In this document: positions 2,866 to 29,135 of the stretch, piece by piece
Layout of the letters: every line of letters begins with the position of its first letter
Numbering within the stretch: position 1 is the stretch's first letter
Notes under the pieces: model-generated
The model's database searches: none
What the model was told of the DNA's origin: nothing
The model's input: the letters and a program-made list of their open reading frames with translations, nothing else
Translations under genes and position numbers: made by a program
NCBI GenBank assembly: GCA_035259575.1
Contig: DATFWE010000042.1
Span: 4,882 to 68,881, forward strand
DNA length: 64,000 nt
Source: Haliangiales bacterium
GTDB taxonomy: Bacteria; Myxococcota_A; Polyangia; Haliangiales; SHYZ01
Direction of reading: 5' to 3'

Positions 2866-4050
2866 GTGCACCTCTCGGCCGCCGCGGCGCGGCGCTTCCT
2901 CGTCCGGCGCCACCTCCTCGCCCCGCCGCGATCGCTGCCCGCGCGGGCGCGCTCGGTGCTCGCCGTCGTCCGCGCGCTCGGATCGCTGCAGTTCGACCCG
3001 CTCGAGACCCCGGGCGCGCGCAACCACGAGCTGGTCCTCCACGCGCGCGTGGCCGGCTACCGCCGGGGCTGGTGCGAGCGCTGGCTCTACGGGCCCGATC
3101 GCCGCCTGTTCGAGGCCTACAACAAGTCGCTCAACATCCTTCCCGTCGAGGAGCTCCCCTACCACCGCATCAGCTTTTCGCGCGGCTGGCCGGGGTACGG
3201 CCAGCTCCTCGCCGGCCACACCGCCGAGACGGCGCGCATCCTCGCGACGATCGCCGAGCGCGGGCCGCTGCCGAGCTCGTACTTCTCCAGGGAGATCAAC
3301 CATACGCTGCCGGGCGGCTGGGGGCCGATGCGCGCCGGACGCCTGCTCGTCGAGGGACTGTTCGTGCACGGGCGCCTGGCGATCGCGCGCCGCGACGGGA
3401 ACACCCGCTTCTACGACCTGCCCGAGCGCGTCTATCCCGCCGAGCTCCTGGCGCGGCCGGTCGAGGACGGCGCGGCGCTGCGGCATCGCCTGCTCACGCG
3501 CTTCCGCGGCGTCGGGCTCCTCGGCGCGGGGGGCGCGGCCGAGGTGACGACCGGGACGGGGCCGGCCGCCGCGCGCCGGAAGGCCATCGAGGGGCTCGCC
3601 GCCGAGGGCGTCCTCGTGCCGGTCACCGTCGAGGGCGTGCGCGGCCCGCGCTGGATCCTCGCCGAGGAACGGCCGCTCCTCGATGCGGGCGCGGCAGGCG
3701 GCGCCGTCACGTTCCTCGGGCCGCTCGATCCGTTCCTGTGGGATCGCCGCCTCGTGCGCGAGCTCTTCGGCTTCGACTACACCTGGGAGGTCTACACGCC
3801 GGCGAAGAAGCGCAAGCACGGCTACTACGTCTTGCCGATCCTCTTCGGCGACCGGCTGGTGGGGCGGATCGAGCCGCGCCTCGACCGGGAGGCCGAGACG
3901 CTGGCGATCGCCGGCCTGTGGCACGAGGCCTCGTTCCGGCCGACGCGCCGCTACCGCGCGGCGTTCGACGACGCGCTGGAGGCCTACCGCGCGTTCGTCG
4001 GTGCCGACGAGGTCGTCCGCTCCAGGCTCAGTGATGGTGCGCGGCCATGA
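2866..4050 (+). CDS. YcaQ/AlkZ-like DNA glycosylase (winged-helix) family protein
   Basis: GTG 2866 start (MHLSAAAARRFLVRRHLL); motifs LQFDPL, NHELVLHARV and LGPLDPFLWDRR..LFGFDYTWEVYTPAKKRKHGYYVLPIL. Confidence 0.85.
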   Translation: MHLSAAAARRFLVRRHLLAPPRSLPARARSVLAVVRALGSLQFDPLETPGARNHELVLHARVAGYRRGWCERWLYGPDRRLFEAYNKSLNILPVEELPYHRISFSRGWPGYGQLLAGHTAETARILATIAERGPLPSSYFSREINHTLPGGWGPMRAGRLLVEGLFVHGRLAIARRDGNTRFYDLPERVYPAELLARPVEDGAALRHRLLTRFRGVGLLGAGGAAEVTTGTGPAAARRKAIEGLAAEGVLVPVTVEGVRGPRWILAEERPLLDAGAAGGAVTFLGPLDPFLWDRRLVRELFGFDYTWEVYTPAKKRKHGYYVLPILFGDRLVGRIEPRLDREAETLAIAGLWHEASFRPTRRYRAAFDDALEAYRAFVGADEVVRSRLSDGARP

Positions 4051-4651
4051 ACAGCGGCCGGAGGGCGAGCCACACCGCGAGGAGGCCCCACGCGACGGCC
4101 TGCACCGCCGGGGCGACGCGTACGCCGAGCCGCCGGAGGCCGGCGCCGGCGAGCGCGGGCACGAGCAGGCCGGGCAGCGTCCCGACCCAGAACGCGGCCA
4201 TGGTGAGCGCGCCCTCCCCCGTTCCGCCGCTCCCGGCGGCGAGGATCCACGCCGGGACGAGCATGCCGCAGGGCAGAAATCCCGTCGCGGCGCCCAGGCC
4301 CAGACCGCCGCGCGGCAGGCGGCGGACGAGCCGCGTCCAGACGCCCGGCCGGCGGAGCGGCACGAGCCGCGACGCACCGGCGGCCACGATCGGCGACACC
4401 GCGCGCGCGATCGCGAATGCGGCGACGAGGAGGAGCGTCACGGTCTGCACCGTGCCGACGGGGAGGGCGCACAGCGCGTGCTCGCCCAGCGCGCCCATGA
4501 TCGCGCCGGCCGCCCCGTAGGACGCGAGGCGGCCGACCTGGTAGCGCGCGCGTCCACTTGCCGCGGCGGCGAGCGGCCCGCACATCGCCGCGCAATGGAG
4601 CGATCCGGCCAGGCCGGCGGCGGCGGCGGTGGCGAGCGCGGCGATCATCAT
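4028..4651 (-). CDS. DsbD_2 / sulfite-exporter TauE-SafE-like membrane protein of cco clusters
   Basis: GLAGSLHCAAMCGPL and GFLPCGML motifs; ATGA-coupled to ccoG. Confidence 0.85.
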   Translation of the reverse strand: MMIAALATAAAAGLAGSLHCAAMCGPLAAAASGRARYQVGRLASYGAAGAIMGALGEHALCALPVGTVQTVTLLLVAAFAIARAVSPIVAAGASRLVPLRRPGVWTRLVRRLPRGGLGLGAATGFLPCGMLVPAWILAAGSGGTGEGALTMAAFWVGTLPGLLVPALAGAGLRRLGVRVAPAVQAVAWGLLAVWLALRPLFMAAHHH

Positions 4652-6006
4652 GGGCGCGGCCCCAGGAAGCGCGCCTCGAGCACGCGGGTCTCGCCGCCCG
4701 CGGACACGCGGATGGGCACGCGCCTCTCACCGCGGAATTGCGCGCGCGGCACGATCATGAACACCGGGGCGTGCGCGTCGGCCATCGGCTCGAGCGCGAT
4801 CTCCGCCATCGGCACGACGAAGCTCATCCCCGGCGAGGTCTCGGGCGCGATGGTGAACGTCGCCGGCTCGGCCTTCTTGTTGACGAGGTGGATCTCGAAC
4901 GAGTTCGTGACCTTCTCGGCGTCGACGACGAACGGCAGGCCGCGGGTGCGGAGGAGGTTCGCCTCGAAGCCGGCGCGGCCGGCGAGCGCCAGCGCCGCCG
5001 CCACGATCGCCGCGCCGAAGACGGCGAGATAGAGGTAAAGGCGCGGGCGCAGGACTCGTTTGCGCTTCCCGTCGAGCCCGTTGAGCGAGTCGTAGCGGAT
5101 CAGGCCCCGCTTGCGCCCGATCTTGACCATGATCTCGTCGCAGGCGTCGATGCAGGCGGTGCAGGCGATGCAGTCGAGCTGGAGGCCGTTGCGGATGTCG
5201 ATGCCGGTGGGGCACACGACGACGCAGCGTTTGCAGTCGACGCAGTCCCCGGCTCCGGCGGCGCCGAGCTTGCCCCGCGGCTCCCCCCGCGCGGCGTCGT
5301 AGCCGATGACGAGCGAGTCCTTGTCGAGGAGCACCGCCTGCAGCCGGCCGTACGGGCACACGCCGATGCATAGCTGCTCGCGGAAGAACGCGAAGTTGAG
5401 GTACAGCGCCGCGGTGGTCGCGGCGGCGACCGCGAACGCCTCGGGGTGGGCCGCCGGCGATCCTTGCACCATCTGGAACAATCCGGGGAGCGAGGCGAAG
5501 TAGGCGAGGAAGACGTGCGCCAGGACGAACGAGATGGCGACCCACGCGGCGTGGGTAGCGGCCTTGCGCCAGACGCGATCCCACGTCCACGCTCCTGCGT
5601 CGCGGCGCATGCGCCTCTCGCGCGGGCCCTGGAGCCAGCGTTCGACGCGGCGGTACACGCCGTCGAGGAACACCGTCTGCGGGCACGCCCATCCGCACCA
5701 CACCCGCCCCAGGAGCGCAGTCGCCACGAACAGGACGAACCCGACGCCGAGGAGGACCACCAGCATCATCCAGATGTCCTGGGCGTTGAACGTCGCGCCG
5801 AAGAGGTGGAAGTGGCGCCGCGGGATGTCGATGAACACGGCAGGATGGCCGCCGATGCGGATCCACGGCAGGGCCACGTAGACGCCGATCAGCGCCGCGA
5901 ACGTCCATCGCCGGGCCGTCGCGAACCGCCCCGTCACGTCCGCGGGGTAGACGAACTTCCGGTGCCCGTCGGGGAGGAGCGAGCTCGCGGCGCCGTCGGG
6001 GATCAT
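4648..6006 (-). CDS. ccoG: cbb3 oxidase accessory 4Fe-4S protein CcoG/FixG
   Basis: CGWACPQ, CIGVCPYG, CVDCKRCVVVCP and CIACTACIDAC motifs; start ATG 6006 overlaps the ccoP stop. Confidence 0.93.
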   Translation of the reverse strand: MIPDGAASSLLPDGHRKFVYPADVTGRFATARRWTFAALIGVYVALPWIRIGGHPAVFIDIPRRHFHLFGATFNAQDIWMMLVVLLGVGFVLFVATALLGRVWCGWACPQTVFLDGVYRRVERWLQGPRERRMRRDAGAWTWDRVWRKAATHAAWVAISFVLAHVFLAYFASLPGLFQMVQGSPAAHPEAFAVAAATTAALYLNFAFFREQLCIGVCPYGRLQAVLLDKDSLVIGYDAARGEPRGKLGAAGAGDCVDCKRCVVVCPTGIDIRNGLQLDCIACTACIDACDEIMVKIGRKRGLIRYDSLNGLDGKRKRVLRPRLYLYLAVFGAAIVAAALALAGRAGFEANLLRTRGLPFVVDAEKVTNSFEIHLVNKKAEPATFTIAPETSPGMSFVVPMAEIALEPMADAHAPVFMIVPRAQFRGERRVPIRVSAGGETRVLEARFLGPRP

Positions 6007-6557
6007 ATCTCCGGGGCGCCCTGCGGCGCCTTGCCCGCGGGCGCGTCGGTGTGGCGCAGGGTGAGGACGTAGGATACGACCTCGCGGACCTTCTGCTCCC
6101 CGAGCTGGGGGCCCCACGCCGGCATCCCCTTGTCGAGGACGCCGCCGCGGACGACCTTGATGATGTCCTCCGGCCTGCCGCCGTGGATCCAGTAGCGGTC
6201 GGTGAGGTTCGGTCCGATCTGCCCGCCGCCGTCGGCGCGGTGGCAGGCGGCGCACGTGGCCACGAACGTGGCCTTGCCCGCGCCGACTATGGCGACGTTC
6301 TTCGCCATCGCCTCGAGCTTCTCGCCGGTGAGCTCGCCCTCGGCGGCGAGCTTCTTGGCCTCTTCCTGCGCGAGGGCGTACTTTTCGGCCTTGTACTGGT
6401 CGACCGGGCTGGGCCCGGCCTTGAGCACCTGGAACCAGATCCAGTAGCACGTGGCGAAGACGACCGTGCCGAAGAGGATCCCGCGCCACCACAGCGGGAG
6501 CTCGTTGTCGAGCTCGCGCAGGTCATCGTCGTAGGTATGGAGCGGCTTGTCACTCAT
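6003..6557 (-). CDS. ccoP: cbb3 oxidase subunit III (short mono-heme CcoP)
   Basis: HTYDDDLRELDNELPLWW N-terminus, single CAACH, GPNLTD and MPAWG; GGAGAGG SD before ATG 6557. Confidence 0.9.
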   Translation of the reverse strand: MSDKPLHTYDDDLRELDNELPLWWRGILFGTVVFATCYWIWFQVLKAGPSPVDQYKAEKYALAQEEAKKLAAEGELTGEKLEAMAKNVAIVGAGKATFVATCAACHRADGGGQIGPNLTDRYWIHGGRPEDIIKVVRGGVLDKGMPAWGPQLGEQKVREVVSYVLTLRHTDAPAGKAPQGAPEI

Positions 6558-6723
6558 GGTCCTCTCCATCGAGGGGAAGGCGCGCGATGCGCTCGTAGCG
6601 GCCCTTGGCGCGCCAGGCGCGCACCGCCGCGGCCGCGAACACGACCGCGAACAGCAGGAACGCCGCCAGCGGCAGGGCGAGGAGCGGGCTCTTGGCGAGG
6701 AGCTCTCCGAAAAGGAACCTCAC
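6550..6723 (-). CDS. ccoQ: CcoQ/FixQ-like small membrane subunit (57 aa; not separately listed in the ORF track)
   Basis: MRFLFGELLAKSPLLALPLAAFLLFAVVFAAAAVRAWRAKGRYERIARLPLDGEDHE; GTGA overlap with the ccoNO stop; one TM helix plus ARLPLD tail, between ccoO and ccoP. Confidence 0.75.
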   Translation of the reverse strand: MRFLFGELLAKSPLLALPLAAFLLFAVVFAAAAVRAWRAKGRYERIARLPLDGEDHE

Positions 6724-9032
6724 GGCGCACCTCCGGCCTGGGCCACGCTCTTGGGCGCGACGGTGTCGTCGGGCGGCAGCGATTTCTTCCCCAGGCTCTG
6801 CAGATAGGCGACCAGCGCGACGAGCTCGCTGTCGGGGGCCACGGCGATCCCGCTCTGGGCGAGATCCGCGGCGATGCCGGCGCCCTGCGCCCGCGCGTCG
6901 TCGCCGGCGGACGCGACCTCGGCCGCGTCGTAGGGGACGCCGAGCATCCGCATCACGCCGAGCTTCGAGCGGGTGCGCCCGAGGTCGACGCGGCCGTCGG
7001 CGAGGAACGCGTAGGGCGGCATGTTGGAGCCCGGCGACGTCGACCGCGGGTCGAGGAGGTGCTGGTAGTGCCACAGGTTGGGGTACTTGCCGCCGACGCG
7101 CGCGAGATCGGGTCCGGTGCGCTTGGACCCCCACTGGAACGGGTGGTCGAAGGCGGAGTCGGCGAGCTGGGACCGATCGCCGTAGCGCTGCGTCTCGAAG
7201 CGCATCGGGCGGATCATCTGCGAGTGGCAGGTGTAGCAGCCCTCGCGCAGGTAGATGTCGCGCCCCTCGAGCTCGAGCGGCGTGTACGGGTGCGTCTGGC
7301 CGGGCGGACCGTCGGTCTTGGCGATGACCACCGACGGCACGATCTCCGCCACGCCGCCGACGAGGATGGCGATCAGCGTGAACACGGTGAACAGCAGCGG
7401 CCGCCCTTCGAGCAGCCGGTGCAGCCCGGCGCTGCCGCCGGACAGCTTGATCGCCCAGAACCCGACCAGGCCCACGAACCCCGCCAGCATGAGGAAGCCG
7501 AGCGCGCCGATCGTGTCGAGGAAGCCGACGGCGATCGCCAGGCTCCCCACGATGCCGACCAGGACGAGCGGCGGGGCGAAGACGATCTTCTTCCACGACG
7601 GCTCCGCCGCGCGAGCGAGCGGGACCACCTCGACCACGCCGTCGACCGCCTTGCCGGCGCGCGCCGTCTTCCACAGGTTCCACGCCATCACGCCCATGCC
7701 GGCGAGGTACATCGCCCCGCCGACGACGCGCACGATGTACATCGGGCGGATCGCGGCGAGCGTCTCGACGAAGTTGGGGTACATGAGGCCGCCGCCGTCG
7801 CCCTGCGCGCGCCACATCATGCCCTGCGTCACGCCCGACACCCACATCGCCACGACGTAGAGCAGGATGCCGATCGTCCCCAGGTAGAAGTGCGCCTCCG
7901 CCGCGGGCTTCGAGTAGAGCTTGGTGCCGAAGAGGCGCGGCACCATCCAGTAGAACATCCCGGCGGCCATGAAGCCGTTCCACCCCAGCGCCCCGGAGTG
8001 CACGTGCCCGATGATCCAGTCGGTGTAGTGCGCCAGCGACGATACGCTCTTGATCGACAGGAGTGGCCCCTCGAACGTCGCCATGCCGTAGAACGTCACC
8101 CCGGCGACGAAGAACTTGAGCACCGGGTCCTGGCGGACCTTGTCCCACGCGCCGCGGAGCGTCAGCAGCCCGTTCAGCATGCCGCCCCAGCTCGGCGCCC
8201 ACAGCATGACCGAGAACACCATGCCGAGCGTCTGCGCCCAGTCGGGGAGCGCAGTGTTCAGCAGGTGGTGCGGGCCCGCCCAGATGTACACGAAGATGAG
8301 CGCCCAGAAGTGGACGATCGACAGGCGGTAGGAGTAGACCGGCCGGTCGGCAGCCTTGGGCAGGTAGTAGTACATGATGCCGAGCACCGGCGTGGTGAGG
8401 AAGAACGCCACCGCGTTGTGCCCGTACCACCACTGCACCAGCGCGTCCTGCGCCCCGGCGAAGATGGAATAGCTCTTGAGCGCCGACAGCGGCAGCGACA
8501 GGCTGTTCACCACGTGCAGCACCGCCACCGTCACGATCGTCGAGATGTAGAACCAGAGCGCCACGTAGAGGTGCTTCTCGTTGCGCCGGGCGAGGGTCCA
8601 GAAGAAGTTGATCGCGAACGTCACCCACACCACCGCGATGGCGACGTCGATGGGCCACTCCAGCTCGGCGTACTCCTTGCCCTGCGTGAAGCCGAGGGGG
8701 AGCGTGATCGCCGCGGCGAGGATGATCGCCTGCCACCCCCAGAAATGGATCGCCGCCAGCTTGTCCGACGCGATGCGCGCCTTGAGCAGGCGCTGCGTCG
8801 AGTAGTAGATGCCGGCGAAGATCATGTTGCCGACGAACGCGAAGATGACCGCGTTGGTGTGGAGCGGGCGGAGGCGGCCGAAGCTCAGCCAGGGGGCCGC
8901 ATTCGCCTGGGGAAACGCCAGCTGCACGGCGACGACGATGCCCACGAGGAGGCCGACGAGCCCCCACCCCACCGAGGCGGCGATGAACTGTCGGCTGATC
9001 TTGTCGTTGTAGACGACCTTAACGGTGGCCAT
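6720..9032 (-). CDS. ccoN: Fused cbb3-type cytochrome c oxidase subunit I/II (CcoN-CcoO)
   Basis: LRPLHTNAVIFAF, HNAVAFFLT, WAGPHHL and HVHSGALGW in CcoN; EGCYTCHSQMIRP, WGSKRTGPDL and SNMP in CcoO. Confidence 0.97.
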   Translation of the reverse strand: MATVKVVYNDKISRQFIAASVGWGLVGLLVGIVVAVQLAFPQANAAPWLSFGRLRPLHTNAVIFAFVGNMIFAGIYYSTQRLLKARIASDKLAAIHFWGWQAIILAAAITLPLGFTQGKEYAELEWPIDVAIAVVWVTFAINFFWTLARRNEKHLYVALWFYISTIVTVAVLHVVNSLSLPLSALKSYSIFAGAQDALVQWWYGHNAVAFFLTTPVLGIMYYYLPKAADRPVYSYRLSIVHFWALIFVYIWAGPHHLLNTALPDWAQTLGMVFSVMLWAPSWGGMLNGLLTLRGAWDKVRQDPVLKFFVAGVTFYGMATFEGPLLSIKSVSSLAHYTDWIIGHVHSGALGWNGFMAAGMFYWMVPRLFGTKLYSKPAAEAHFYLGTIGILLYVVAMWVSGVTQGMMWRAQGDGGGLMYPNFVETLAAIRPMYIVRVVGGAMYLAGMGVMAWNLWKTARAGKAVDGVVEVVPLARAAEPSWKKIVFAPPLVLVGIVGSLAIAVGFLDTIGALGFLMLAGFVGLVGFWAIKLSGGSAGLHRLLEGRPLLFTVFTLIAILVGGVAEIVPSVVIAKTDGPPGQTHPYTPLELEGRDIYLREGCYTCHSQMIRPMRFETQRYGDRSQLADSAFDHPFQWGSKRTGPDLARVGGKYPNLWHYQHLLDPRSTSPGSNMPPYAFLADGRVDLGRTRSKLGVMRMLGVPYDAAEVASAGDDARAQGAGIAADLAQSGIAVAPDSELVALVAYLQSLGKKSLPPDDTVAPKSVAQAGGAP

Positions 9033-9183
9033 GGGTCTCCTCGGTTTTTTCGTCGCGTAGGGGAAACAGGGACAGGCGATCGGCGTGCTCGTGGTCGCGC
9101 TGCTTCATGCTGAAGCCGAAAAGGAGGATCGAGCCGGCGACGAGCATCAGGCTCACGAACACCTGGAGGATCACGACCGCCAT
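9019..9183 (-). CDS. ccoS: cbb3 oxidase maturation protein CcoS/FixS (54 aa; not separately listed in the ORF track)
   Basis: MAVVILQVFVSLMLVAGSILLFGFSMKQRDHEHADRLSLFPLRDE; one TM helix, between ccoI and ccoN, overlapping both. Confidence 0.8.
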   Translation of the reverse strand: MAVVILQVFVSLMLVAGSILLFGFSMKQRDHEHADRLSLFPLRDEKTEETHGHR

Positions 9184-11492: not shown

Positions 11493-11505
11493 CACGCGGG
11501 CATCT

Positions 11506-11522
11506 AGCAAGGAGGGTGCCGA
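11506..11522 (-). promoter_or_regulatory. Putative sigma54 -24/-12 promoter of the cco operon
   Basis: Minus strand TCGGCACCCTCCTTGCT (GG-N10-GC, close to TGGCAC-N5-TTGC). Confidence 0.7.
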
Positions 11523-11550
11523 CCGCCGCGCGCCCGGACCGGGGACGCGG

Positions 11551-11565
11551 GCGCAGTTTCTGCGC
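11551..11565. promoter_or_regulatory. Palindromic activator-type site
   Basis: GCGCAG-TTT-CTGCGC; a half site (GGAAG-AAT-CTGCG) lies 31 bp downstream at 11583-11595. Confidence 0.6.
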
Positions 11566-11643: not shown

Positions 11644-12498
11644 ATGCACACCGTGTCCGAGCTCATGACGCCGAGCCCGATCGTCATCGACGTCCATCAA
11701 CCGTTGGCGGAGGCCTCCGAGCGGATGGAGCAGTTCAGGCTCCGGCATCTGCCGGTCATCGACGCTCGGGGCCGGCTCGTCGGGATCCTGTCCGAGCTCG
11801 ACCTCTATCGCTTCAAGGACAAGCGGCCTCGGGCCGACCTCGAAAACATGGCCGTCGGCGCGGCCATGGACCCGAATCCCTACACCGTGGCGCCGGACGC
11901 TCCCATCACCTCGGTCGCGCGCACCATGGCCGCCCAGCGCATCGGCGCTGCGGTCGTCATGAACGAAGGCCGCGTCGCCGGCGTGTTCACCACCGTCGAC
12001 GCGCTCCGCGGGCTCGCGGCGGCGGACGTGCTCTCCGAGGTCGGTGGCGCGCCGGTGTCGCCGACGGCCGCGCGCAAGGTCCTCTGCCCCATCGACTTCT
12101 CCCCCGGTTCGCGCGAGGCCGTGTGCCACGCGCTCGACCTCGCGCGCGGCTCCGGCGGCTCGGTCACCCTGTTTCACGCCTTCGACGTGCCGGCGGTGTC
12201 GTTCACCCCGGCGATGATCGAGCAGGCCGACGAGCAGGTGCTGGCGTCGCTTCACGAGTGGCGGCTCGACTTCCAGCGTCCCGGCGAGGCCGATATCGCC
12301 GTCGCCAAGGGCATCGGCCCGGCGTGGCGGGCGATCGTGGACTACGCGAAGGCCCACGACTACGACGTCATCGTGATGGGGACGCACGGACGCACCGGGC
12401 TCCCGCGCATGCTGGTGGGCTCGGTGGCGGAGAACGTGACGCGCCACGCGCCCTGCCCGGTGATGATCGTGCGGCGCCGCGAGAGCGATCGCCCATGA
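11644..12498 (+). CDS. CBS-domain pair fused to a universal stress protein domain
   Basis: VSELMTPSP..RLRHLPVID..LVGILS and IGAAVV..VAGVFTTVD (CBS); VLCPIDFS..IVMGTHGRTGLPRMLVGSVAENV.RHAPCPV (USP). Confidence 0.9.
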   Translation: MHTVSELMTPSPIVIDVHQPLAEASERMEQFRLRHLPVIDARGRLVGILSELDLYRFKDKRPRADLENMAVGAAMDPNPYTVAPDAPITSVARTMAAQRIGAAVVMNEGRVAGVFTTVDALRGLAAADVLSEVGGAPVSPTAARKVLCPIDFSPGSREAVCHALDLARGSGGSVTLFHAFDVPAVSFTPAMIEQADEQVLASLHEWRLDFQRPGEADIAVAKGIGPAWRAIVDYAKAHDYDVIVMGTHGRTGLPRMLVGSVAENVTRHAPCPVMIVRRRESDRP

Positions 12499-18213: not shown

Positions 18214-18226
18214 ACACCGACGAGCC

Positions 18227-22100: not shown

Positions 22101-22205
22101 CGCGACGAGCGCCGTGCCGCCGGTGTCGCCCGTGCAGCCGGCGAACAAGACCGCCGCGACCGCGCCGGCGAGCCGGATTCGTCCGATTCTGCTTGCGTTG
22201 TGCAT
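19173..22205 (-). CDS. OmcA/MtrC-family decaheme cytochrome lipoprotein with N-terminal tandem repeats
   Basis: GGAGG SD before ATG 22205; lipobox LFAGC; 10 CxxCH in a 5+5 arrangement separated by a beta-rich domain; FVHRIH and FIHAIH distal-His motifs. Confidence 0.88.
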   Translation of the reverse strand: MHNASRIGRIRLAGAVAAVLFAGCTGDTGGTALVATTPEPPGAHCANGGTRLETGVDANMNGVLDPGEVNASETTYICNGSSGRPTLVKTSPEPPGPNCPSGGVKIEMGVDANGNGLLDPSEVNPAQTTYVCGGTPGPSATSTGLAIAIKGVSDDASGAISVRFSMKDSRGFPVDKNGIYTLNTPIAMRFSLSYLTKDPDGNVLPNTVLTQASSASAQTRFQPTAYNPSATTTATTRTPAVGLLVEDVPLSGEYTYTFPTADVQQTDTSGAPNGVVFTAVAYDASKLGNTHVVWIEASRQTNLDNTLDPAGFDAVNTYFNYIPNNPTGTPLNREIASTAGCNNCHRGFSAEGLTSSSFHNSGRIDARYCVVCHNPARVSNPAAQAMVFVHRIHNGESLQPQNVFHGVAATYPQDIRNCGACHDGAAQGAQAKGRPTLAACTSCHDQVDFAAASSAATCVHPPAVDGTGLNVPCKHTGGAVADGACATCHTPALIGRYHVPIAPPDPNNILNGGTNANTNAGFLAAAGAVPEGAAVITYAVSSVDAVADAGGVKRPSIKFKLLKNGSNVAFPTFGGGATELMDGFVGSPSVYFAFSVPQDGIAAPADYNATASGYIKNIWNGTATGTGAGTLTGPDASGFYTIVLPNVVIPNNAAQLTGGVGYTYNLVSAFPLTEIDLPAFPYDTVKKQGGLIVPAPDVYKVATGYTARHVIIDNANCLKCHVTLGAAPTFHAGQRNNGPTCSFCHNPNQSTSGWGGNAKDFIHAIHGARKRTVAFTWHAESATENFSHVEFPGPLNNCTACHVAGDYDFSSATSMAALPSMLPSTVAKGRYNNNATTNPASWFTISPYVIADGFTDYGLGFATTNLTTTLPDGRTGTQGTQSCTPATPCTCSLANPCTVTGVTSGKQGGTNCTAAAPCTCTSAAPCTGVAAKTCSTSAPCEADPTTLVKSPIVAACSACHDTPVAIDHMQAMGGYFYAPRSVVLAPGATKEQCLLCHGPGRLAAIAEVHR

Positions 22206-22242: not shown

Positions 22243-23322
22243 TCAGAAATGACAGGTCGTGCACATCCCGTTGCTGCGGATCTCCGAGTGGTCGTGGTGC
22301 GAAAGCCACGACGCGGGATGTGGGTTGCCGCCGATCCCGCCGACGCGGTGGCAGCTCACGCAGTTGGATCGCGGGCCCTGGTCGTGGCACGACGCGCAGC
22401 TCGCGATGTCGCGCCGCGCCGCCTCGCCATGGAAATCCCCCGATCCCGGGATGGTCCACCCGAGCGGATGCGGATCACGCGGATTTTGCGCGGTCGGCGT
22501 CAAATTCTGGGCCTGATGACAGCTCGTGCAGAAATCGTTCCCATGGCACTTGCGGCAGGAGGCCTCGTTGCCGGCGGCCTCGATCGAGTGCCGTCCGAGG
22601 AAGTCATTGCGGTGGATGAAGGACGCGTCGACCGACTCGGGGAACTTGACCTCGACCCGGGTCGCCACGGTCCGGGCGTGGCAGTCCGCGCAGTACGTCT
22701 GGTCGTGGCACTGCGCGCAGTTCCCGGCGGAGCTGCGCGCGTCGGCGCCGTGGCGCGCGATGTAATTGCCCTGGTGCGAGAAATCGGACAGGGGCTTGAG
22801 CGCGATGCGGTTCAGCGTCGGATGGCACCCCGTGCACTGGGTCTGCGCGTACTCCTGCGCGTGCTCGTGGCAGCCCAGGCAGTCGCTCATCTTGGGCACG
22901 GTGTCCACCGCTGCGAACGGCTCCGGGAGCCGCTGGTGACAAGTCGAGCAGTCCTCCTTGACGCGCTCGATGTGCTTCTGGTGGCTCATCTTCACCAGGC
23001 CCTCGGCGAGCGTGCGCTTCGCGGCGTGCTGGACGTCCGTGTGGCAGAAGCTGCAGTTGTTCTTTTCCTTCTGCTCCTTGTGGCACTGGAGGCACGTGTC
23101 TTCCGGGGGCAGCGCCTCGGGCGCGGTGCCGAGCGCGGTCTCGTCGAACACGCCCTCGTGGCAGGCGATGCACTTGACGTCGTTCTTGGCGTGGATCTCG
23201 TGCGGAGCGCGGATCCGATCGCTGGGCGGGTCGGCCGGCGTCGTCCGCGGCGACGCGGGCCAGCACGAGACGAGGGCGCCGCCGGCGGCGGCGAGCGCGA
23301 CGAGGGCAAGCGCCTTCCTCAC
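22243..23322 (-). CDS. 13-heme cytochrome c3-like lipoprotein
   Basis: GTG 23322 overlaps the upstream stop; lipobox LVSC; 13 CxxCH with PHEIH and SHQKH c3-type distal His pairs. Confidence 0.9.
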   Translation of the reverse strand: MRKALALVALAAAGGALVSCWPASPRTTPADPPSDRIRAPHEIHAKNDVKCIACHEGVFDETALGTAPEALPPEDTCLQCHKEQKEKNNCSFCHTDVQHAAKRTLAEGLVKMSHQKHIERVKEDCSTCHQRLPEPFAAVDTVPKMSDCLGCHEHAQEYAQTQCTGCHPTLNRIALKPLSDFSHQGNYIARHGADARSSAGNCAQCHDQTYCADCHARTVATRVEVKFPESVDASFIHRNDFLGRHSIEAAGNEASCRKCHGNDFCTSCHQAQNLTPTAQNPRDPHPLGWTIPGSGDFHGEAARRDIASCASCHDQGPRSNCVSCHRVGGIGGNPHPASWLSHHDHSEIRSNGMCTTCHF

Positions 23323-24584
23323 GGCGTCACCTTCTTCGCGCGGTAGTCGAAGTTGTAGACCAGCTTCGCCATCGCCTCGGTGCGCCACTCGAGCAGCGGC
23401 GTCCGCCCGGTCAAGCCGCTCACGAGGCCCCTCCACCCGGGCGCGAAGTCCCAGCCGACCGTCGCGGCGAACGTCAGCGACAGGTTCTCGCCGTTGATCC
23501 GCGGGTCGAGCCACACCGCGTCGCAATCGAGGGTCGCCGTGACGTCGCGGCCGAACCGGTGCAACCCGTAGATGCGGCCCTGGACGTAGCGGCTGGCCGG
23601 CAGCGCGAGGACGCGCCCCTGGACGCCGATCTGAGTCATGTCCGCCCCGTCGACGGCGAGCGATGCGCGCAGCCCGGCGCGCCCGCCGGTGCCGGAGTCG
23701 TCGTGGAGCACGAAGCCGTCCCCCCACAGGCGAAGGCGCGCCCACGGCCGGAAGTACACCGTCGCCCCGCCCTCCTCGCGCGCCTCCTCGGCGAACACGG
23801 AGAAGATCGACGCCCGCGATACGAACAGATCCGGCGCGGTGCGCGCCGCCTCGGCCGTGACCTCGAGGTTGCGCAGCGGCTGCCACAGCGCGCGCAGCGA
23901 CGCCTCGCTGATCCTCTGCTCGAGGATGCTGAACGCCGCGAGCGCGGTCAACGTGACCTCTTCCGTCACGACCGCGCGCGCGTCGACGCCGGCCTCCTGG
24001 CGATCGACCAAGCCGTCGTCGAGGATGTCCACGAACGAGAGGCCGCCCTCGAAGATCGGCGACGGCCGCCACGACAGGCGCCCGCCGATCACGCCCTGAC
24101 CGTGGGCGTAGCCGAAACGCGGCGGCACGGGAACGCCGCCGTAGATCTGGACACGGATGCCCGCGGGGGCGAGCGCGACGACGTCGGCACCGTCGAGCTG
24201 AAGGTTGCGCGCGACGCCCGAGGCGACGAGCTGGCGCCCGAGACGCACGCCCAGGTGACGATCGAACAGCTTGCCCTCGATGAACGCGACGTCGACGTCG
24301 CCGGTGACGTTGCGGTCGTCCAACGTGGTGCCGCCGGCGACCATGCCCCACCCGGACACGACGATGCGCGTCCCGTGGACTCCCGGGATGTCGACGTCGC
24401 GCGCCGAGAGCCAGATTTCCTCGTACGCGGGTACGACCGTGTGCACCGTGCCGTCGCGTGGGTCCTGGCGCCCGGCGAGGAGCGTCAGAGCGGTCGCGTC
24501 GACGGTCTGCCCGTGCACGAGCACCGGCAGGCCCACGCCGACGGCCGCCACGATCGCGCTAGTTCTGAACGTCGACCATTCCAT
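23319..24584 (-). CDS. Putative outer-membrane beta-barrel (porin of a porin-cytochrome conduit)
   Basis: Signal peptide, no hemes, many alternating amphipathic strands (GVDARAVV, LEVTAEAAR, LTFAATVGWDF, AMAKLVYNF); coupled between two multiheme genes. Confidence 0.68.
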   Translation of the reverse strand: MEWSTFRTSAIVAAVGVGLPVLVHGQTVDATALTLLAGRQDPRDGTVHTVVPAYEEIWLSARDVDIPGVHGTRIVVSGWGMVAGGTTLDDRNVTGDVDVAFIEGKLFDRHLGVRLGRQLVASGVARNLQLDGADVVALAPAGIRVQIYGGVPVPPRFGYAHGQGVIGGRLSWRPSPIFEGGLSFVDILDDGLVDRQEAGVDARAVVTEEVTLTALAAFSILEQRISEASLRALWQPLRNLEVTAEAARTAPDLFVSRASIFSVFAEEAREEGGATVYFRPWARLRLWGDGFVLHDDSGTGGRAGLRASLAVDGADMTQIGVQGRVLALPASRYVQGRIYGLHRFGRDVTATLDCDAVWLDPRINGENLSLTFAATVGWDFAPGWRGLVSGLTGRTPLLEWRTEAMAKLVYNFDYRAKKVTP

Positions 24585-25980
24585 TGATGTGGGCTCCGCC
24601 AACCTTGATGGCGCCGCCGGGCAAGACCGTCCCGGAGTGACACTGCACACAGTCCGACAGCTTCAGGCTCGGGTCATGGGCGTCCGTCGGCGGTGGGATG
24701 CCGTGGCACGAGCCGCAGGCGATCGTGCCCACCCCGCCGCCCCACACCGGCCGCACCGCCCCGTGGCACCATACGTTGTTGCAGGTCTGCGCCTGCGCAT
24801 CCCACGCCGGCTGGGTTTTGCCGCCGCCCGTGGCGCGCACGCCGGTCATGGCGACGGTCGCCTCCTGCGTGAGGTGCCCGGGCGCATCGACGCTCGCGGG
24901 GACCGTGTGGCAGTCGCCGCACGCCACGGGCGCGGACAAAAGGTGCAGCGCGTCCGTGTGCGCGAGGTGGCTGCCCGTCGCGGGCGGCTGGCCGTGACAG
25001 CTCGTGCACACATCGGCGCCGACGCCGAAGTCGATGCTGCCGTTGACGTGCTTGCTCGCGTCGCGGACGTGGCGCTCGGCGTCGACGACCGCCGAATGGC
25101 AATCGACGCAGCGACCGCCGGTGTTGTGATGGCCGCTCGGCGGCAGCCCGTGGCACGTGCCGCACGCCGCCTGGTCGGGGCCGCCGGTCCACTTCGGCGC
25201 GGTCCGCGTCGCCGCCGCGTCCGTGAACGCGCCCCCGTGACAGTAGACGCCCGAACAGGTCCGGGCGGGCTGATCGTAGGTCGGCGTCGCCGACATCGCG
25301 AATGCCAGGGCGCCGAAGTGTATCGTCGCCGGTCCGGTGTGGAGGTGGCCGGCCTCGGTCACGACCGCCGGCTTCAGGTGGCACGCGGTGCAGTCGAGCG
25401 CCGCGCCGATGCCTCCCGAGACGTGGGCCAGGTGCGACCCGGTGGATGGCGGCTGCCCGTGACAGCCCGTGCACGATGTCAGCCCGCCGGAGTGGCAGGT
25501 CGCGCACCCGACGCCCGAGGTGCCGCCGGCGAAGTCGCTGCCGTGGCATTTCGCGCACAGGGTGAGGTCCCAGTTGAACACCTGGCCGACGACCGTGCCG
25601 TGGAACGTCGGATCGCTCGGATTCATCAGGCCCGGGCCATGGACGGGCGACGTCTCGTAGCCCAGGTCATCGTCGACGACCCAGGTCCGCAGCAGCGCGA
25701 ACGTGGTCGCGAACGGCGCGTGCGTCGCGTCGCTCCCGATGGCGATGAGGACGGACGTCGCGTCGCCGGCGCGGGCGCGCGCGATGACCTGAAAATAGTC
25801 GTCCGTCCGGAAGCCGGCCGCCGGCTCGCTCCCGGTGTGGCAGGAGCCGCACTTGTCGGCGAGCGCGGGCGCGACGTCCTTCTTCCACGTCAATCCCTGT
25901 CGCCGCACACCCGGCTCGAGGGTTTGCGGCGTGGCGCAACCCACGGCGAGGCCGACGGCCATGGCGGCGACTGCGCGCAT
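24559..25980 (-). CDS. 13-heme CxxxxCH/CxxCH-domain cytochrome lipoprotein
   Basis: Lipobox LAVGC; 11 CxxCH plus CSGVYCH and CNNVWCH; two internally repeated modules. Confidence 0.9.
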   Translation of the reverse strand: MRAVAAMAVGLAVGCATPQTLEPGVRRQGLTWKKDVAPALADKCGSCHTGSEPAAGFRTDDYFQVIARARAGDATSVLIAIGSDATHAPFATTFALLRTWVVDDDLGYETSPVHGPGLMNPSDPTFHGTVVGQVFNWDLTLCAKCHGSDFAGGTSGVGCATCHSGGLTSCTGCHGQPPSTGSHLAHVSGGIGAALDCTACHLKPAVVTEAGHLHTGPATIHFGALAFAMSATPTYDQPARTCSGVYCHGGAFTDAAATRTAPKWTGGPDQAACGTCHGLPPSGHHNTGGRCVDCHSAVVDAERHVRDASKHVNGSIDFGVGADVCTSCHGQPPATGSHLAHTDALHLLSAPVACGDCHTVPASVDAPGHLTQEATVAMTGVRATGGGKTQPAWDAQAQTCNNVWCHGAVRPVWGGGVGTIACGSCHGIPPPTDAHDPSLKLSDCVQCHSGTVLPGGAIKVGGAHINGMVDVQN

Positions 25981-25983
25981 GGC

Positions 25984-26322
25984 TCACTTGCCGGCGAACG
26001 ACCGCATGTACTTCACCAGGTCCTCAATCTGGTCGGGCTTGAGCTTCGCCTTGTAGGCGTCCATCTGCTGCTTCTTGCCGTCCTTGGTCCGGTCGAGCCC
26101 GTCCTCGATCGCCTTCTGGATGGCCTCGTCGGTGAACTCCTTCTGCCACGCGGGGGCGGTCGCGTCGCGGACGCCCATCTCCTTGCCCTTGGTGGTTTGC
26201 CCCTTGCCGTCGTCGCCGTGGCACGACGCGCACTTCGCCTTCCAGGTGCGCTCGGTCTTGTCCGCCCGAGCGGCGGTCGCGAGAGCCATGATGCAGAACA
26301 ACGCGGTGCAAACCGTACGCAT
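25984..26322 (-). CDS. Secreted mono-heme cytochrome c (paralog of 14305..14652)
   Basis: AAAGGAG SD, signal peptide, KAKCASCHGDDGKG and QQM distal Met. Confidence 0.92.
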   Translation of the reverse strand: MRTVCTALFCIMALATAARADKTERTWKAKCASCHGDDGKGQTTKGKEMGVRDATAPAWQKEFTDEAIQKAIEDGLDRTKDGKKQQMDAYKAKLKPDQIEDLVKYMRSFAGK

Positions 26323-26324: not shown

Positions 26325-26543
26325 TCACTCCTTTGCCCGGGGAGGGGCCGCCGCCTCGTCCGGCCGACCCCAAACGAGCCAATAGAGGTAGAGGAGAAGG
26401 CCGATGCCGAGCGCTGCTCCGCCGACCGTCGCGAACGCGATGAACGACAGCGGGTGCGACCAGAACAGGGTGACGAGCTCGACGACGAGCGCCACCATCA
26501 CGAGCGCACACGCGAGGCGCAGCAGCAGCGACGACCGGCTCAT
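26325..26543 (-). CDS. Small two-TM membrane protein (72 aa)
   Basis: ATGA overlap with the NapC-like stop; MSRSSLLLRLACALVMVALVVELVTLFWSHPLSFIAFATVGG... Confidence 0.72.
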   Translation of the reverse strand: MSRSSLLLRLACALVMVALVVELVTLFWSHPLSFIAFATVGGAALGIGLLLYLYWLVWGRPDEAAAPPRAKE

Positions 26544-27160
26544 TCCTTGTCCTCCGTCGGTCCGGACCACAGCTTGAGCTTGGCGAGCTCATCGACGGCA
26601 TGGACGTTGGGGTGGCAGCTCTGCGACAGACACGACAGCTCGTTGCTCTGGATGCGCGCGCGTTCCTTCTTGTGTTCCGACGTATCCTCGAAACCGCGCG
26701 TGCCGTCGTGGCAGTGCAGGCACTCGCGATTGTTGTACGGCGTGTAGAGCTTGATTTGCTCGGGCACGGTGCCGAGGTAGGCCACCCACACGTGCTGCAG
26801 GCCCTTGAGCTTGGCGTGGAGGTCGCCGTAGAGCGTGTACGTCGTGTGGCAGGCGAAACATGCCGTTTGGCGCGGCACGCGGGAATTCTGAACATGGGCC
26901 GCAGGGAGGTATCGGGGATCGTCGATGGTTAGGCTCTTCCCGTACTTCTCCATCGCGTGGCAGGACGTGCAGTAGGCGACCGTCTTCGAGTGCTCGATGT
27001 GCGTGCTCGTCCCCATGAACACGATGAACAACGGAAACACCATGATCGAGACGAAGCCGAACAGCTTGCCGATGCCGTGGGTCAAGACCTGCGGTCGCGC
27101 GACGCCCACGAAGAGGAGGGCGATTGCGACGAGGATGCTCGCAACAGGTAGGATCCCCAT
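26540..27160 (-). CDS. NapC/NirT (CymA-like) membrane-anchored tetraheme quinol dehydrogenase
   Basis: N-terminal TM helices; YCTSCHAM, CFACH, AKLKGLQHV, CLHCH and a last heme as CLSQSCH. Confidence 0.85.
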   Translation of the reverse strand: MGILPVASILVAIALLFVGVARPQVLTHGIGKLFGFVSIMVFPLFIVFMGTSTHIEHSKTVAYCTSCHAMEKYGKSLTIDDPRYLPAAHVQNSRVPRQTACFACHTTYTLYGDLHAKLKGLQHVWVAYLGTVPEQIKLYTPYNNRECLHCHDGTRGFEDTSEHKKERARIQSNELSCLSQSCHPNVHAVDELAKLKLWSGPTEDKE

Positions 27161-27179: not shown

Positions 27180-27196
27180 AGCAACCTGCTTGCCAA
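27180..27196 (-). promoter_or_regulatory. Putative sigma54 promoter of the multiheme operon
   Basis: Minus strand TTGGCAAGCAGGTTGCT. Confidence 0.72.
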
Positions 27197-27235
27197 CCTG
27201 GGCCCGGTTTTTGGCGGGTCTCTGGCAGTCTTTCC

Positions 27236-27278
27236 CGCAAATCCTGCGTTTCAGGGCGGCCGAGGCGCGAAAACTGCG
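27236..27278. promoter_or_regulatory. Pair of CGCAA-N3-CTGCG-type sites
   Basis: CGCAA-ATC-CTGCG (27236) and CGCGA-AAA-CTGCG (27266), 30 bp apart. Confidence 0.62.
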
Positions 27279-27282: not shown

Positions 27283-27774
27283 TCAGACGGACGATGAGGC
27301 CAGCTCCGCGTTGATGCGGGCGGCCACGTCCTCGACGAAGCGCAGGACGGCGGCCTCGGCCACCCGATGCAAGAGGAGGGCGTCGAGGGCGGTCCCGACC
27401 GGCCCAAGCGGGGGACGGTATGCCCCGTAAAGCTCGATCTGGGTCTCGTGGCGCGACAGCGGATAGAGGCGCAGCGAGGCCTCCATCGACGGGAAGAAGC
27501 CGCCGGCGCGCGCGGCCGTCCACGCGATGTCGATCCGAGCCGTCCGGTCCCCGAGGACGCCGACCTCCTCGGACCGGGAGACGACCCGGATGCTCACCGG
27601 CACGCCGACCTCGAGAGGGCCGAGCTTCACGCGCAGCGTCGCTCCGACCTCGTCGGCCCGCACCGAGGCCGCGCGGGTGGCGCGCTGGAACAACCCGGCG
27701 GCGTCGCCGTCGAGGAGCGCGCACACGCGCTCGTAGGAGGCGGTCACGTACTCGTAGCAGCGCAGCTCGATCAT
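27283..27774 (-). CDS. Hypothetical protein, possible START/SRPBCC-like fold
   Basis: C-terminal part of track ORF 27283..29229, coupled to the hemN stop (MIELRCYEYV..FFPSMEASLRLYPL..YRPPLGPVG..ALLLHRVAEA). Confidence 0.6.
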   Translation of the reverse strand: MIELRCYEYVTASYERVCALLDGDAAGLFQRATRAASVRADEVGATLRVKLGPLEVGVPVSIRVVSRSEEVGVLGDRTARIDIAWTAARAGGFFPSMEASLRLYPLSRHETQIELYGAYRPPLGPVGTALDALLLHRVAEAAVLRFVEDVAARINAELASSSV

Positions 27775-29135
27775 CACACCGTCCTCGAGAAAACGGGTCG
27801 GCGGGCGTCCCCGTGCCCGCGATACGCGTCGAACGCCATCGACACGTTGCGGACGAAGACCCGACCGAGCGGAGTGAGCCGGATGTCGCCGCCGTCGATG
27901 ACGCACAGACCGTCGTCCGCGAGCGCGCGCAGGCGCTCGAGCTCGGGGGCAAATGCGTCGAGCTCGTCGGCCGCGAGCGTCGCGCGGAGGTTGCACATGA
28001 GGTTGCCGATGATCGCCCGCCGCCGCTCGTCGTCGGGGCTGCGCACCCAGCCCCGCTCCACCGGCAGGAGGCCGGCGTCCAGCATGGCCGCGTAGCGCGG
28101 CAGCGTCTTGACGTTCTGCAGGTAGGCGCCGCCGACGTCGCCGATGCCGCTGACGCCGAGCGCGATCGTGCCGGCGCCCCCGCGTCCGGCGGAATAGCCC
28201 TGGAAGTCGCGCCACAACCGCCCCTCCGCGCGGGCGCGCGCGAGCTCGTCGTCGGGCAGCGCGAAGTGATCCATGCCGATGGCGACGTAGCCGGCGTCGA
28301 TGAGGGCGTCGTGGGCCAGGCGAAACAGCGCGAGCTTGGCCGCGCCGGTCGGGAGCTCCGCCACCGGCAGGCGGCGCTGGTGCGGTTTCACCGTCGGGAC
28401 GTACGCGAACGAAAAGAGCGAGATGCGGTCGGGGCGGATCGCCGCGATGCGCTCGATCGTCCGCCGCCATGACGGGGGCGTCTGGCGCGGCAGGCCGTAG
28501 ATGAGGTCGAGGTTGACGCTGCGCAACCCGAGCGAGCGCGCCCCGTCGACCGCCGCGCGCGTCTCCTCCTCCGTCTGGATGCGCGCGATCGCCCGTTGCA
28601 CGTCCTCGTCGAGGTCCTGGACGCCCATGGAGATGCGCCGGAAACCCAGGCGCGCGAGGAGCTCGAGCTGCGTCGTCCGGGTGACCGCGGGGTCGACCTC
28701 GACGGCTAGCTCGGCGTCGGGAAGGATGTCGAACGCGCCGGCGAGGATCGCGTGGAGCTCGGCGAGCTGCCGCTCGTCGAGGAACGTCGGCGTCCCCCCG
28801 CCGAGGTGGACGCGCGAAATCGCCTTCCGCCCGCCGAGGGCGGCCCGCACCAGCGCCGCCTCCTTTCGCACCAGGGCGAGATAGTCGTCGCCCTTCGCTT
28901 GGTTCTTGGTGACGATGACGTGGCACCCGCAGTACGAGCACATCTCGCGGCAGAACGGGATGTGCACGTAGAGCGACAGGGGCTCGGCGCCAGCGCGGGC
29001 GAGCGCCGCCTCGGCCTCGTGCGGGCCGAGGGCGCGCCAGTCCACCGCGGTGGGGTAGCTCGTATAGCGCGGCCCCGGGACGTCGAGTCGACGCGTCATC
29101 TCGTCGGAGAGCGCCGGGAAGTGCGCGTCGGTCAT
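27774..29135 (-). CDS. hemN: Oxygen-independent coproporphyrinogen III oxidase
   Basis: GPRYTSYPT, LSLYVHIPFCREMCSYCGC, HLGGGTP, MDHFAL and RDFQGY motifs. Confidence 0.95.
   Translation of the reverse strand: MTDAHFPALSDEMTRRLDVPGPRYTSYPTAVDWRALGPHEAEAALARAGAEPLSLYVHIPFCREMCSYCGCHVIVTKNQAKGDDYLALVRKEAALVRAALGGRKAISRVHLGGGTPTFLDERQLAELHAILAGAFDILPDAELAVEVDPAVTRTTQLELLARLGFRRISMGVQDLDEDVQRAIARIQTEEETRAAVDGARSLGLRSVNLDLIYGLPRQTPPSWRRTIERIAAIRPDRISLFSFAYVPTVKPHQRRLPVAELPTGAAKLALFRLAHDALIDAGYVAIGMDHFALPDDELARARAEGRLWRDFQGYSAGRGGAGTIALGVSGIGDVGGAYLQNVKTLPRYAAMLDAGLLPVERGWVRSPDDERRRAIIGNLMCNLRATLAADELDAFAPELERLRALADDGLCVIDGGDIRLTPLGRVFVRNVSMAFDAYRGHGDARRPVFSRTV

Follow-up and report, generated by a model that had tools for sequence, protein, structure and literature searches.

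The DNA analysed here is a 64-kb stretch (64,000 nucleotides, called the window below) of contig DATFWE010000042.1 from the GenBank assembly GCA_035259575.1 of a Haliangiales bacterium. Between positions 4028 and 29135 it carries a genuine island of respiratory genes: a cbb3-type oxidase (cco) operon, a Rieske/cytochrome b operon in which the cytochrome b is fused to a nonaheme domain, a diheme lipoprotein gene, a seven-gene operon for a multiheme conduit, and hemN. We read this region as central to a regulon for oxygen limitation that brings together alternative electron sinks, in which the conduit would most likely export electrons, and give this reading a probability of about 0.55. The placing of these units side by side under one shared control signal suggests a switchable disposal of respiratory electrons, with oxygen or extracellular solids as the destination. 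All the parts belong to known kinds, and the finding exceeds a chance juxtaposition. Three things are new: a hybrid conduit, part Pcc-like and part MtrC-type, that is widespread in Myxococcota; the repeated association of this conduit with a Rieske complex of the cytochrome b::nonaheme form; and the proposed circuit of globin-coupled kinase, NtrC-type activator and sigma-54. Myxobacteria are abundant soil heterotrophs and predators, and they are not usually counted as electroactive. Our data suggest that the barrel-cytochrome module occurs in about a quarter, and decahemes of the OmcA/MtrC family in about a fifth, of Myxococcota genomes.

Gene models were based on the phase of the third-position G+C (GC3) and on Pfam and NCBIfam searches; the G+C content of the window is 72 %. 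Every gene listed in the original prediction was found in these searches, from the cco operon through the cytochrome c-Rieske-cytb, diheme lipoprotein and seven-gene units to hemN. Its count of 53 heme motifs between 14.3 and 27.2 kb also agrees with ours, as 50 CxxCH and three Cx4CH motifs lie there. The six frames of the whole window hold 57 CxxCH, including these 50. The host is an uncultured soil myxobacterium of a Myxococcota/Polyangia-like lineage, since all close homologues come from metagenome-assembled genomes (MAGs) of that kind, in line with the myxobacterial look already remarked on.

Conduit module and its distribution in Myxococcota

The conduit operon consists of seven overlapping or abutting genes on the minus strand, running from 27160 down to 19173 and converging on the Rieske/b and diheme lipoprotein genes. 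One of them (23319-24584) is heme-free and encodes a secreted protein of an unnamed family, for which Pfam, NCBIfam and a sequence search of solved structures all gave no match. Its AlphaFold2 model, built from a 41-sequence alignment, is all-beta (pLDDT 87.6) and has 22 strands behind a signal peptide. Foldseek returned outer-membrane barrels and porins, with top TM-scores of about 0.53 for the 24-strand usher pores FimD and PapC, and the lumen of the model appears wide enough for a polypeptide. The trans-envelope barrel of the original prediction is thus borne out as a confidently predicted 22-strand outer-membrane barrel with genes for multiheme lipoproteins on both sides. The family has 1149 members at E <= 1e-3 in a library of 1.8 billion representatives, and the homologues are all unannotated "hypothetical" proteins from MAGs.

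Directly downstream of the barrel gene, positions 22243-23319 (minus strand) encode a 358-residue lipoprotein with 13 CxxCH motifs. Among 31 homologues, 12 of these motifs are invariant and many distal histidines and the lipobox cysteine are conserved; no cultured organism is found among the best 120 homologues. On the other side of the barrel gene lies that of a lipoprotein with 11 CxxCH and two Cx4CH motifs (24559-25980, minus strand), which contains a CxxxxCH/CxxCH domain (TIGR01904, 80 bits) and is conserved beside the barrel. The last gene of the operon (19173-22205, minus strand) encodes a 1010-residue decaheme lipoprotein of the OmcA/MtrC surface family, with 10 CxxCH, matches to TIGR03507 (305 bits, cut-off 209), PF22113 (140 bits) and PF23657, and two N-terminal DUF7151 repeats. 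Between hemes 8 and 9 a cysteine-rich repeat, C(T/S)xxxPC, is encoded at 19386-19559. In sequence searches of solved structures, the 11+2-heme protein had no match, the 13-heme protein matched only ActA-like and c7 fragments, and the decaheme matched one weak MtrC fragment.

The operon begins with a NapC/NirT-family tetraheme quinol dehydrogenase (26540-27160, minus strand), which has three CxxCH and one Cx4CH motif. Two N-terminal hydrophobic helices precede the tetraheme domain, as in CymA-like proteins (PF03264, 35.4 bits, cut-off 24.1), and in NCBIfam the scores for the equivalogs NrfH, NapC and TorC fall under the respective cut-offs. It is followed by genes for a 72-residue protein with two transmembrane helices (26325-26543, minus strand), kept beside napC in relatives, and for a secreted monoheme cytochrome c assigned by Pfam (25984-26322, minus strand). 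A truncated NapC/NirT fragment is present elsewhere in the window (47238-47340, minus strand). It is 76 % identical to residues 44-77 of the complete protein, keeps the first CxxCH and then runs into stops, and therefore looks like the remnant of a pseudogene. Beside it, 48699-50072 (plus strand) encodes a secreted protein of 457 residues with two CxxCH and no family match.

The comparison covered 18 loci of genomes that represent species (without exception MAGs of Myxococcota or 'Deltaproteobacteria', recovered from soil, palsa and groundwater), two distant metagenome contigs, and 11 loci contributed by a scan of 401 Myxococcota genomes; the locus search was seeded with a 13-sequence alignment. 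In every locus examined (about 35) the barrel gene is directly followed by that of a 12-13-heme cytochrome of about 350 residues, and a CxxxxCH/CxxCH-domain cytochrome homologous to the 11+2-heme protein flanks this core on one side or the other. The core is joined by the napC, two-helix and cytochrome c genes in the relatives' loci L001 and L002, and by an MtrC-family gene (46 % identity) and hemN in L004. The barrel was present in 94 of the 401 genomes and 56 of the 255 genera, and an OmcA/MtrC-family protein scored over the cut-off in 78 genomes. The two are strongly associated: 46 of the 72 strong barrel carriers have an MtrC-family gene, compared with 39 of the 329 other genomes (odds ratio 13, p = 5e-19), and the distance between them is 1.5-11 kb in at least 13 genomes (G165, G245, G190, G230, G150, G395, G300, G260, G110, G399, G285, G394 and G229). 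In the genus g10 (e.g. G085, G130 and G170, with genomes of 4.1-4.9 Mb) only positions of about 107-414 of the barrel profile are matched, within open frames of 630-730 residues, which points to a barrel that is larger or fused to another part.

The original prediction had joined the cbb3 oxidase to the conduit, and this part did not hold. The oxidase is simply common in the phylum (FixO over the cut-off in 242 of 401 genomes, mostly in the fused NO form), and its link to the barrel is weak (75 % of carriers, 57 % of non-carriers, p = 0.005). A cco operon never adjoins the barrel in the 13 or more genomes that have the barrel near an MtrC-family gene, and FixO was not detected in the four closest conduit-bearing relatives. 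The cbb3 oxidase was accordingly rejected as an integral partner of the conduit, and its adjacency is particular to this genome. The conserved functional unit thus comprises the barrel, two 13-heme cytochromes and an MtrC-family decaheme, with or without a Rieske/b::nonaheme complex or NapC.

The Rieske/b::nonaheme operon is read on the plus strand. It starts with a secreted monoheme cytochrome c (14305-14652, Pfam Cytochrom_C), a paralogue of the cytochrome c of the conduit operon (49 % identity), followed by a Rieske 2Fe-2S subunit with a twin-arginine/transmembrane anchor (14666-15124, PF00355), whose best NCBIfam resemblance is to the b6f type. In the product of the third gene (15121-18015) a cytochrome b6-like protein continues into a periplasmic domain that carries nine CxxCH (Pfam matches to Cytochrome_B, Cytochrom_B_C and Cytochrome_C7). 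As judged from the sequence, the 964 residues would form a b6-like core, extra transmembrane helices, the nine-heme domain and a C-terminal anchor. The four heme b ligands are His95/His109 and His196/His211 (spacing 14 and 15), and the PEWY motif of the Qo site is present. Together with the Rieske subunit this four-histidine cytochrome b (PF00033, PF00032) is characteristic of a bc1/b6f-type complex, with scores under the cut-offs for NF002990 (222 bits) and NF040969 (ExtP, 203 bits). The operon has no gene for a cytochrome c1 or f as a third subunit; the nine-CxxCH domain fused to cytochrome b is found instead. The genome has three heme-copper oxidases, cbb3 and two of the A type, each A-type oxidase beside its own Rieske/b pair (contigs C32:43546-50784 and C208:6011-10714). 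The Rieske/b::nonaheme complex is therefore an extra, dedicated one. A further pair on contig C158 brings the Rieske/b complexes of the genome to four.

This operon abuts the conduit module in five relatives (L003, L004, L008, L010 and L011), although the identity of their barrels is just 37-47 %, so that retention by chance is unlikely. The observation bears on an explanation in which the modules are independent and share no more than a general hypoxia regulon. NapC alone would then feed the conduit, the Rieske/b::nonaheme complex would serve only cbb3 and NosZ, and the supercluster would reflect co-regulation only. Such an arrangement would agree with the uniqueness of the cco adjacency to this genome and with the module in L001 and L002 coming with napC, the two-helix gene and cytochrome c but not with Rieske/b. 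It would also agree with three genes that have no counterpart in the relatives' loci, namely those of the diheme lipoprotein, a 553-residue membrane protein and a 163-residue protein. However, besides the conserved synteny, a nonaheme domain exceeds what is needed for reducing a monoheme cytochrome c, and we regard full independence of the modules as unlikely.

Shared promoter motif and candidate regulatory circuit

Each of the five units of the island is preceded by one or two palindromes CGCAA-N3-TTGCG, located 30-135 bp upstream of a correctly oriented, sigma-54-like GG-N10-GC element. The common upstream motifs reported in the original prediction were thus recovered at all five units. The core of the palindrome, CGCA-N5-TGCG, occurs 11 times in the window, compared with 4.9 expected, and seven of the 11 sites are within the five promoter regions. 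Upstream of the cytochrome c-Rieske-cytb operon (14186-14272, plus strand) there are perfect palindromes at 14186 and 14225, then TGGCAC-N5-TCGC (14257-14272) and a Shine-Dalgarno sequence. The napC promoter (27181-27248, minus strand) has GGCAA-N5-TTGC at 27181-27194 and a palindrome at 27236-27248, and a homologous tandem pair is found directly upstream of napC in L001. The hemN promoter (29149-29237, minus strand) contains GGCC-N6-TTGC (29149-29162) and palindromes at 29194 and 29225, and that of the diheme lipoprotein (18065-18212, plus strand) a palindrome at 18065-18077 and GGCAC-N5-CTGC at 18199-18212. In the divergent cco promoter (11507-11564, minus strand) the elements are GGCAC-N5-TTGC (11507-11520) and the palindrome CGCAGAAACTGCG (11552-11564).

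A loose scan of the genome (6.78 Mb, 92 % complete) for the palindrome combined with a -24/-12 element was too noisy to define a regulon, and a stricter motif together with a tandem-pair criterion was used. With at most one mismatch the motif has 123 matches, 45 of them in the approximately 15 % of the sequence that lies outside coding regions or close to a start codon; eight of these 45 lie in this window, within 26 kb. Only four sites in the genome are perfect, and two of them are upstream of the cytochrome c gene at 14305. Tandem pairs spaced 30-40 bp apart occur at five places in the 6.8 Mb, three of them in the window and one before the gene of an NtrC-type activator. A looser pair precedes a cytochrome c-clade II nosZ gene pair (TIGR04246, 857 bits). 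On that contig (C232:37447-39920) a lipoprotein cytochrome c is followed by the clade II (Sec-dependent) nosZ, with the motif pair and GGCATCGCGCTTGC upstream. In the relatives' loci there are 6-11 matches per 15-21 kb, where about 0.4 would be expected from the genome-wide density.

Paralogues of the CBS-Usp gene that is divergent from the cco operon adjoin motif sites at other places in this genome, as well as in relatives. In the window itself, a second group of sites is seen at 36819-40139, with palindromes at 37389, 37787 and 37827, the last two forming a tandem pair. The genes bearing them encode a Usp protein (minus strand), a hemerythrin (plus strand) and a fusion of acyl-CoA ligase and enoyl-CoA hydratase (plus strand), so that the regulon seems to reach past respiration.

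The NtrC-type activator has a receiver domain, an AAA+ domain with the GSFTGA motif and a helix-turn-helix domain, and its divergent neighbour is a globin-coupled kinase (Protoglobin-HisKA-HATPase); rpoN is present in the genome. The signalling cluster to which both belong (contig C301:51559-57888) comprises a PAS histidine kinase, the activator, the Protoglobin histidine kinase, a multi-receiver protein and a further receiver-kinase. Orthologues of the activator are 75-79 % identical, compared with about 50 % for paralogues. The motif is found upstream of the activator gene in this genome and in four relatives, and in three relatives this gene shows synteny with the conduit locus. In the L001 genome it lies 4.5 kb upstream of the conduit operon, with a perfect site 60 bp before the start codon and a protoglobin gene in between. 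In the L002 genome it is on the contig of the conduit and has a tandem pair upstream of it. In L004 a homologue of 58 % identity is situated inside the locus, divergent from the conduit genes, and the sites are in the spacer between the two. These comparisons are good evidence for control of the conduit locus, and of its own gene, by the activator, presumably through binding to the palindrome. Because the motif is non-random, concentrated in this region, retained in relatives and connected with a sigma-54 activator, it is well founded to infer co-regulation of the units. Thus, of the co-regulation put forward in the original prediction, the shared non-random motif was confirmed, and joint control is what the sequence leads us to infer.

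Proposed electron routes and neighbouring genes

We propose that the globin-coupled sensor kinase signals to the NtrC-type activator, which would bind the CGCAA-N3-TTGCG palindromes and open the sigma-54 promoters. The units controlled would be cbb3 with its assembly genes, cytochrome c-Rieske-b6::nonaheme, the diheme lipoprotein, the seven-gene conduit operon and hemN, and elsewhere the cytochrome c-nosZ operon and the activator's own gene. Quinol would be oxidised either by the NapC/NirT tetraheme protein or by the Rieske/b complex, giving two entries from the quinol pool, and the electrons would continue through the monoheme cytochromes c and the membrane-anchored nonaheme domain. From there they could branch, either to cbb3 or NosZ, or to the Pcc-like outer-membrane module. 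In that module the 13-heme lipoprotein may be threaded in the 22-strand barrel as a wire and pass electrons to the 13-heme CxxxxCH-type lipoprotein, proposed to be at the outer face, and on to the OmcA/MtrC-family surface decaheme. Fe(III) or Mn(IV) minerals or humic matter would be the final acceptors.

The members of the regulon that can be named are cbb3, NosZ, HemN and Usp proteins, which are typically induced when oxygen is short. Export is preferred because cbb3, NosZ and HemN represent electron sinks and anaerobic housekeeping. The original prediction had allowed either take-up or export of electrons, with take-up in first place; export fits, and uptake is the possibility that we do not favour, given these sinks and the lack of a RuBisCO gene in the 92 %-complete genome. 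With uptake, electrons from Fe(II), reduced humics or a cathode would enter through the decaheme and barrel and reach cbb3 via the monoheme cytochromes c under micro-oxic conditions, and the Rieske/b complex might run in reverse and reduce quinone. It is true that one motif is common to the genes for cbb3, for a dedicated Rieske/b complex, for monoheme cytochromes c, for a NapC/CymA-like protein and for a porin-cytochrome module, and that this is the set of components proposed to serve neutrophilic Fe(II) oxidisers with MtoAB. A high-potential Rieske centre also suits a chain from a high-potential donor better than low-potential export, and cbb3 is, as described, slightly commoner in barrel carriers. 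However, cbb3 adjoins the module in no other genome examined and was not detected, as FixO, in the nearest relatives. NosZ and HemN in the regulon are typical of acceptor switching, and proteins of the OmcA/MtrC family are known as terminal reductases. Electron uptake through the conduit is, in our opinion, improbable, and this and the emphasis on cbb3 are the weakest part of the original prediction. Lithoautotrophic oxidation of Fe(II) with the Calvin cycle was rejected, as no RuBisCO was found.

It could also be asked whether the module acts as a trans-outer-membrane reductase for soluble or colloidal non-metals, such as selenite or tellurite, organic peroxides or quinone-like exudates, instead of in mineral respiration. 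For the cytochrome b, the nearest likeness after cytochrome b6 is to ExtP, which belongs to an operon for selenite/tellurite reduction. Unlike dedicated metal reducers, the genome has only about eleven open reading frames with three or more CxxCH, most of them in this locus. The match to ExtP is nevertheless under the threshold, the surface protein passes the family cut-off for OmcA/MtrC, and the locus contains no gene for a rhodanese or a molybdo-enzyme. A function of this kind is thus very improbable.

A more far-reaching version can be put forward only tentatively: that Myxococcota commonly possess this hybrid conduit, which would be new to the literature, that in the present lineage it is fed by a proton-motive Rieske/b complex through the fused nonaheme wire, and that a heme-based oxygen sensor, the globin-coupled kinase, switches the entire chain by way of the NtrC-type activator and sigma-54. 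If true, extracellular electron transfer would be coupled to the Q-cycle and the globin-coupled sensor kinases of myxobacteria would gain a physiological role. The locus opens three ideas to testing: that electrons enter an outer-membrane conduit through a bc-type complex that conserves energy, that low-oxygen respiration has a defined cis-element and activator in a phylum where sigma-54 activators dominate regulation, and that globin-coupled sensor kinases have here a candidate function.

Several observations weigh against our interpretation. The sequence does not tell in which direction electrons flow or what the substrate is. As a rule, a Rieske centre is too strongly oxidising to supply bis-His hemes of low potential, and electrons could therefore pass in reverse between the bc-type complex and the conduit. 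The placement of the 13-heme protein inside the barrel is opposed by its being a predicted lipoprotein, unlike MtrA or OmaB, and its AlphaFold2 model (pLDDT 63, pTM 0.28) is too poor to judge its shape. As regards regulation, the cco promoter has a single, weaker palindrome. The -24/-12 pattern by itself is not enriched (21 in the window, 15.7 expected), and at three units (11495-11520, 18199-18229 and 29135-29162) no more than 11-14 nt separate the -12 element from the start codon, so that leaderless mRNAs or different start codons would be required. Moreover, the locus was seen in soil-metagenome DNA runs only, and none of the RNA runs contained it.

The cco operon is tightly packed on the minus strand, from 11495 down to 4028. 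Its first gene encodes a CcoI-like P1B-type (copper) ATPase (9171-11495) with E1-E2_ATPase, Hydrolase and ATPase-cat_bd domains and a score of 260 bits, under the model's cut-off, for TIGR01511. A CcoS-like membrane protein of 54 residues (9019-9183), recognised from its translation and its position between ccoI and ccoNO, is followed by the catalytic core, a fused CcoN-CcoO (6720-9032; NF011053, 1194 bits, cut-off 1080). Both halves score over their own cut-offs, the CcoN part with TIGR00780 (672 bits, cut-off 583) and the monoheme CcoO part with TIGR00781 (238 bits, cut-off 201) and PF02433 (277 bits). At the CcoQ position there is a small open reading frame with one transmembrane helix (about 6550-6723), seen in translation only. 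The CcoP-like subunit (6003-6569) has a FixP_N anchor and one Cytochrome_CBB3 domain with a single CxxCH instead of two heme c sites; with 90.7 bits for TIGR00782 (cut-off 180) it is a monoheme variant. The operon ends with the assembly ferredoxin CcoG/FixG (4648-6006; TIGR02745, 441 bits, cut-off 317) and a membrane protein of the DsbD_2 family (4028-4651; PF13386, 97.8 bits).

Divergent from ccoI, on the plus strand, are the genes for a CBS-CBS-Usp protein (11644-12498, Pfam CBS and Usp) and for the polytopic 553-residue membrane protein (12518-14179), which had no Pfam or NCBIfam match and could not be assigned to a family. The diheme lipoprotein (18227-19120, plus strand), with its own promoter region, a lipobox, two CxxCH and a linker rich in proline and aspartate, likewise had no Pfam or NCBIfam match and is specific to this lineage. 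HemN, the oxygen-independent coproporphyrinogen III oxidase (27774-29135, minus strand; TIGR00538, 454 bits, cut-off 325), is predicted to be co-transcribed with the 163-residue protein (27283-27774, minus strand), for which no family match was found.

Comparison with known systems

The closest likeness is to the Pcc conduits of Geobacter and especially to the two-gene form of Anaeromyxobacter and Kuenenia, Anaeromyxobacter belonging to the same phylum as this genome. Pcc porins have 18-22 strands, and in Anaeromyxobacter the porin is accompanied by a cytochrome of 338-344 residues with 12-14 hemes; one such cytochrome, Adeh_3392, rose when Mn(IV) was being reduced (Shi et al. 2014, PMC4245776). 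Here, too, a small porin, with 22 strands in the model, is encoded beside a compact multiheme cytochrome (358 residues, 13 hemes), a likeness of size and heme count. The heme number is within the 5-14 of Pcc cytochromes, and the adjacent CxxxxCH lipoprotein cytochrome resembles proteins of the OmcB type. The system differs in that the inner cytochrome is a predicted lipoprotein and that the operon adds an OmcA/MtrC decaheme, NapC/NirT and a monoheme cytochrome c, with Rieske/b::nonaheme linked to it.

With MtrCAB/OmcA of Shewanella the locus shares the family of its decaheme and a common logic, leading from a NapC/CymA-type quinol dehydrogenase through a periplasmic carrier and a cytochrome in a barrel to a surface cytochrome. 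The barrel, however, has 22 strands and not the 26 of MtrB, and it does not match PF11854 (MtrB_PioB); the 13-heme proteins do not match MtrA/DmsE, and the decaheme has two DUF7151 repeats and a cysteine-rich insert not shared with MtrC. No Myxococcota turned up in a survey for which mtrC, mtrA and mtrB all had to be present (PMC8805035). Searches for mtrCAB would overlook an extracellular-electron-transfer capacity of the present kind, because the MtrA and MtrB partners are replaced. Analogous divergent conduits have been described in peat Acidobacteriota and Verrucomicrobiota, and the architecture found here is not among them (bioRxiv 10.64898/2026.05.27.727921). Our literature search found no description of this module in Myxococcota.

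The Rieske/b complex is comparable with those of anammox bacteria, of Geobacter (ExtP) and of Firmicutes (b6c), with which it shares a PEWY-containing b6-like cytochrome b, a Rieske protein and a multiheme cytochrome c replacing c1. In the present complex, by contrast, nine hemes are carried in a single 964-residue cytochrome b polypeptide with an extra C-terminal anchor, and the genes are syntenic with an outer-membrane conduit. The regulon, finally, resembles the FNR/ANR regulons of proteobacteria (ccoNOQP-hemN-nos) in having cbb3, HemN and N2O reductase as members. It apparently relies on sigma-54, an NtrC-type activator and a globin-coupled kinase, with a CGCAA-N3-TTGCG site instead of the FNR box, and it also takes in a conduit for extracellular electron transfer.

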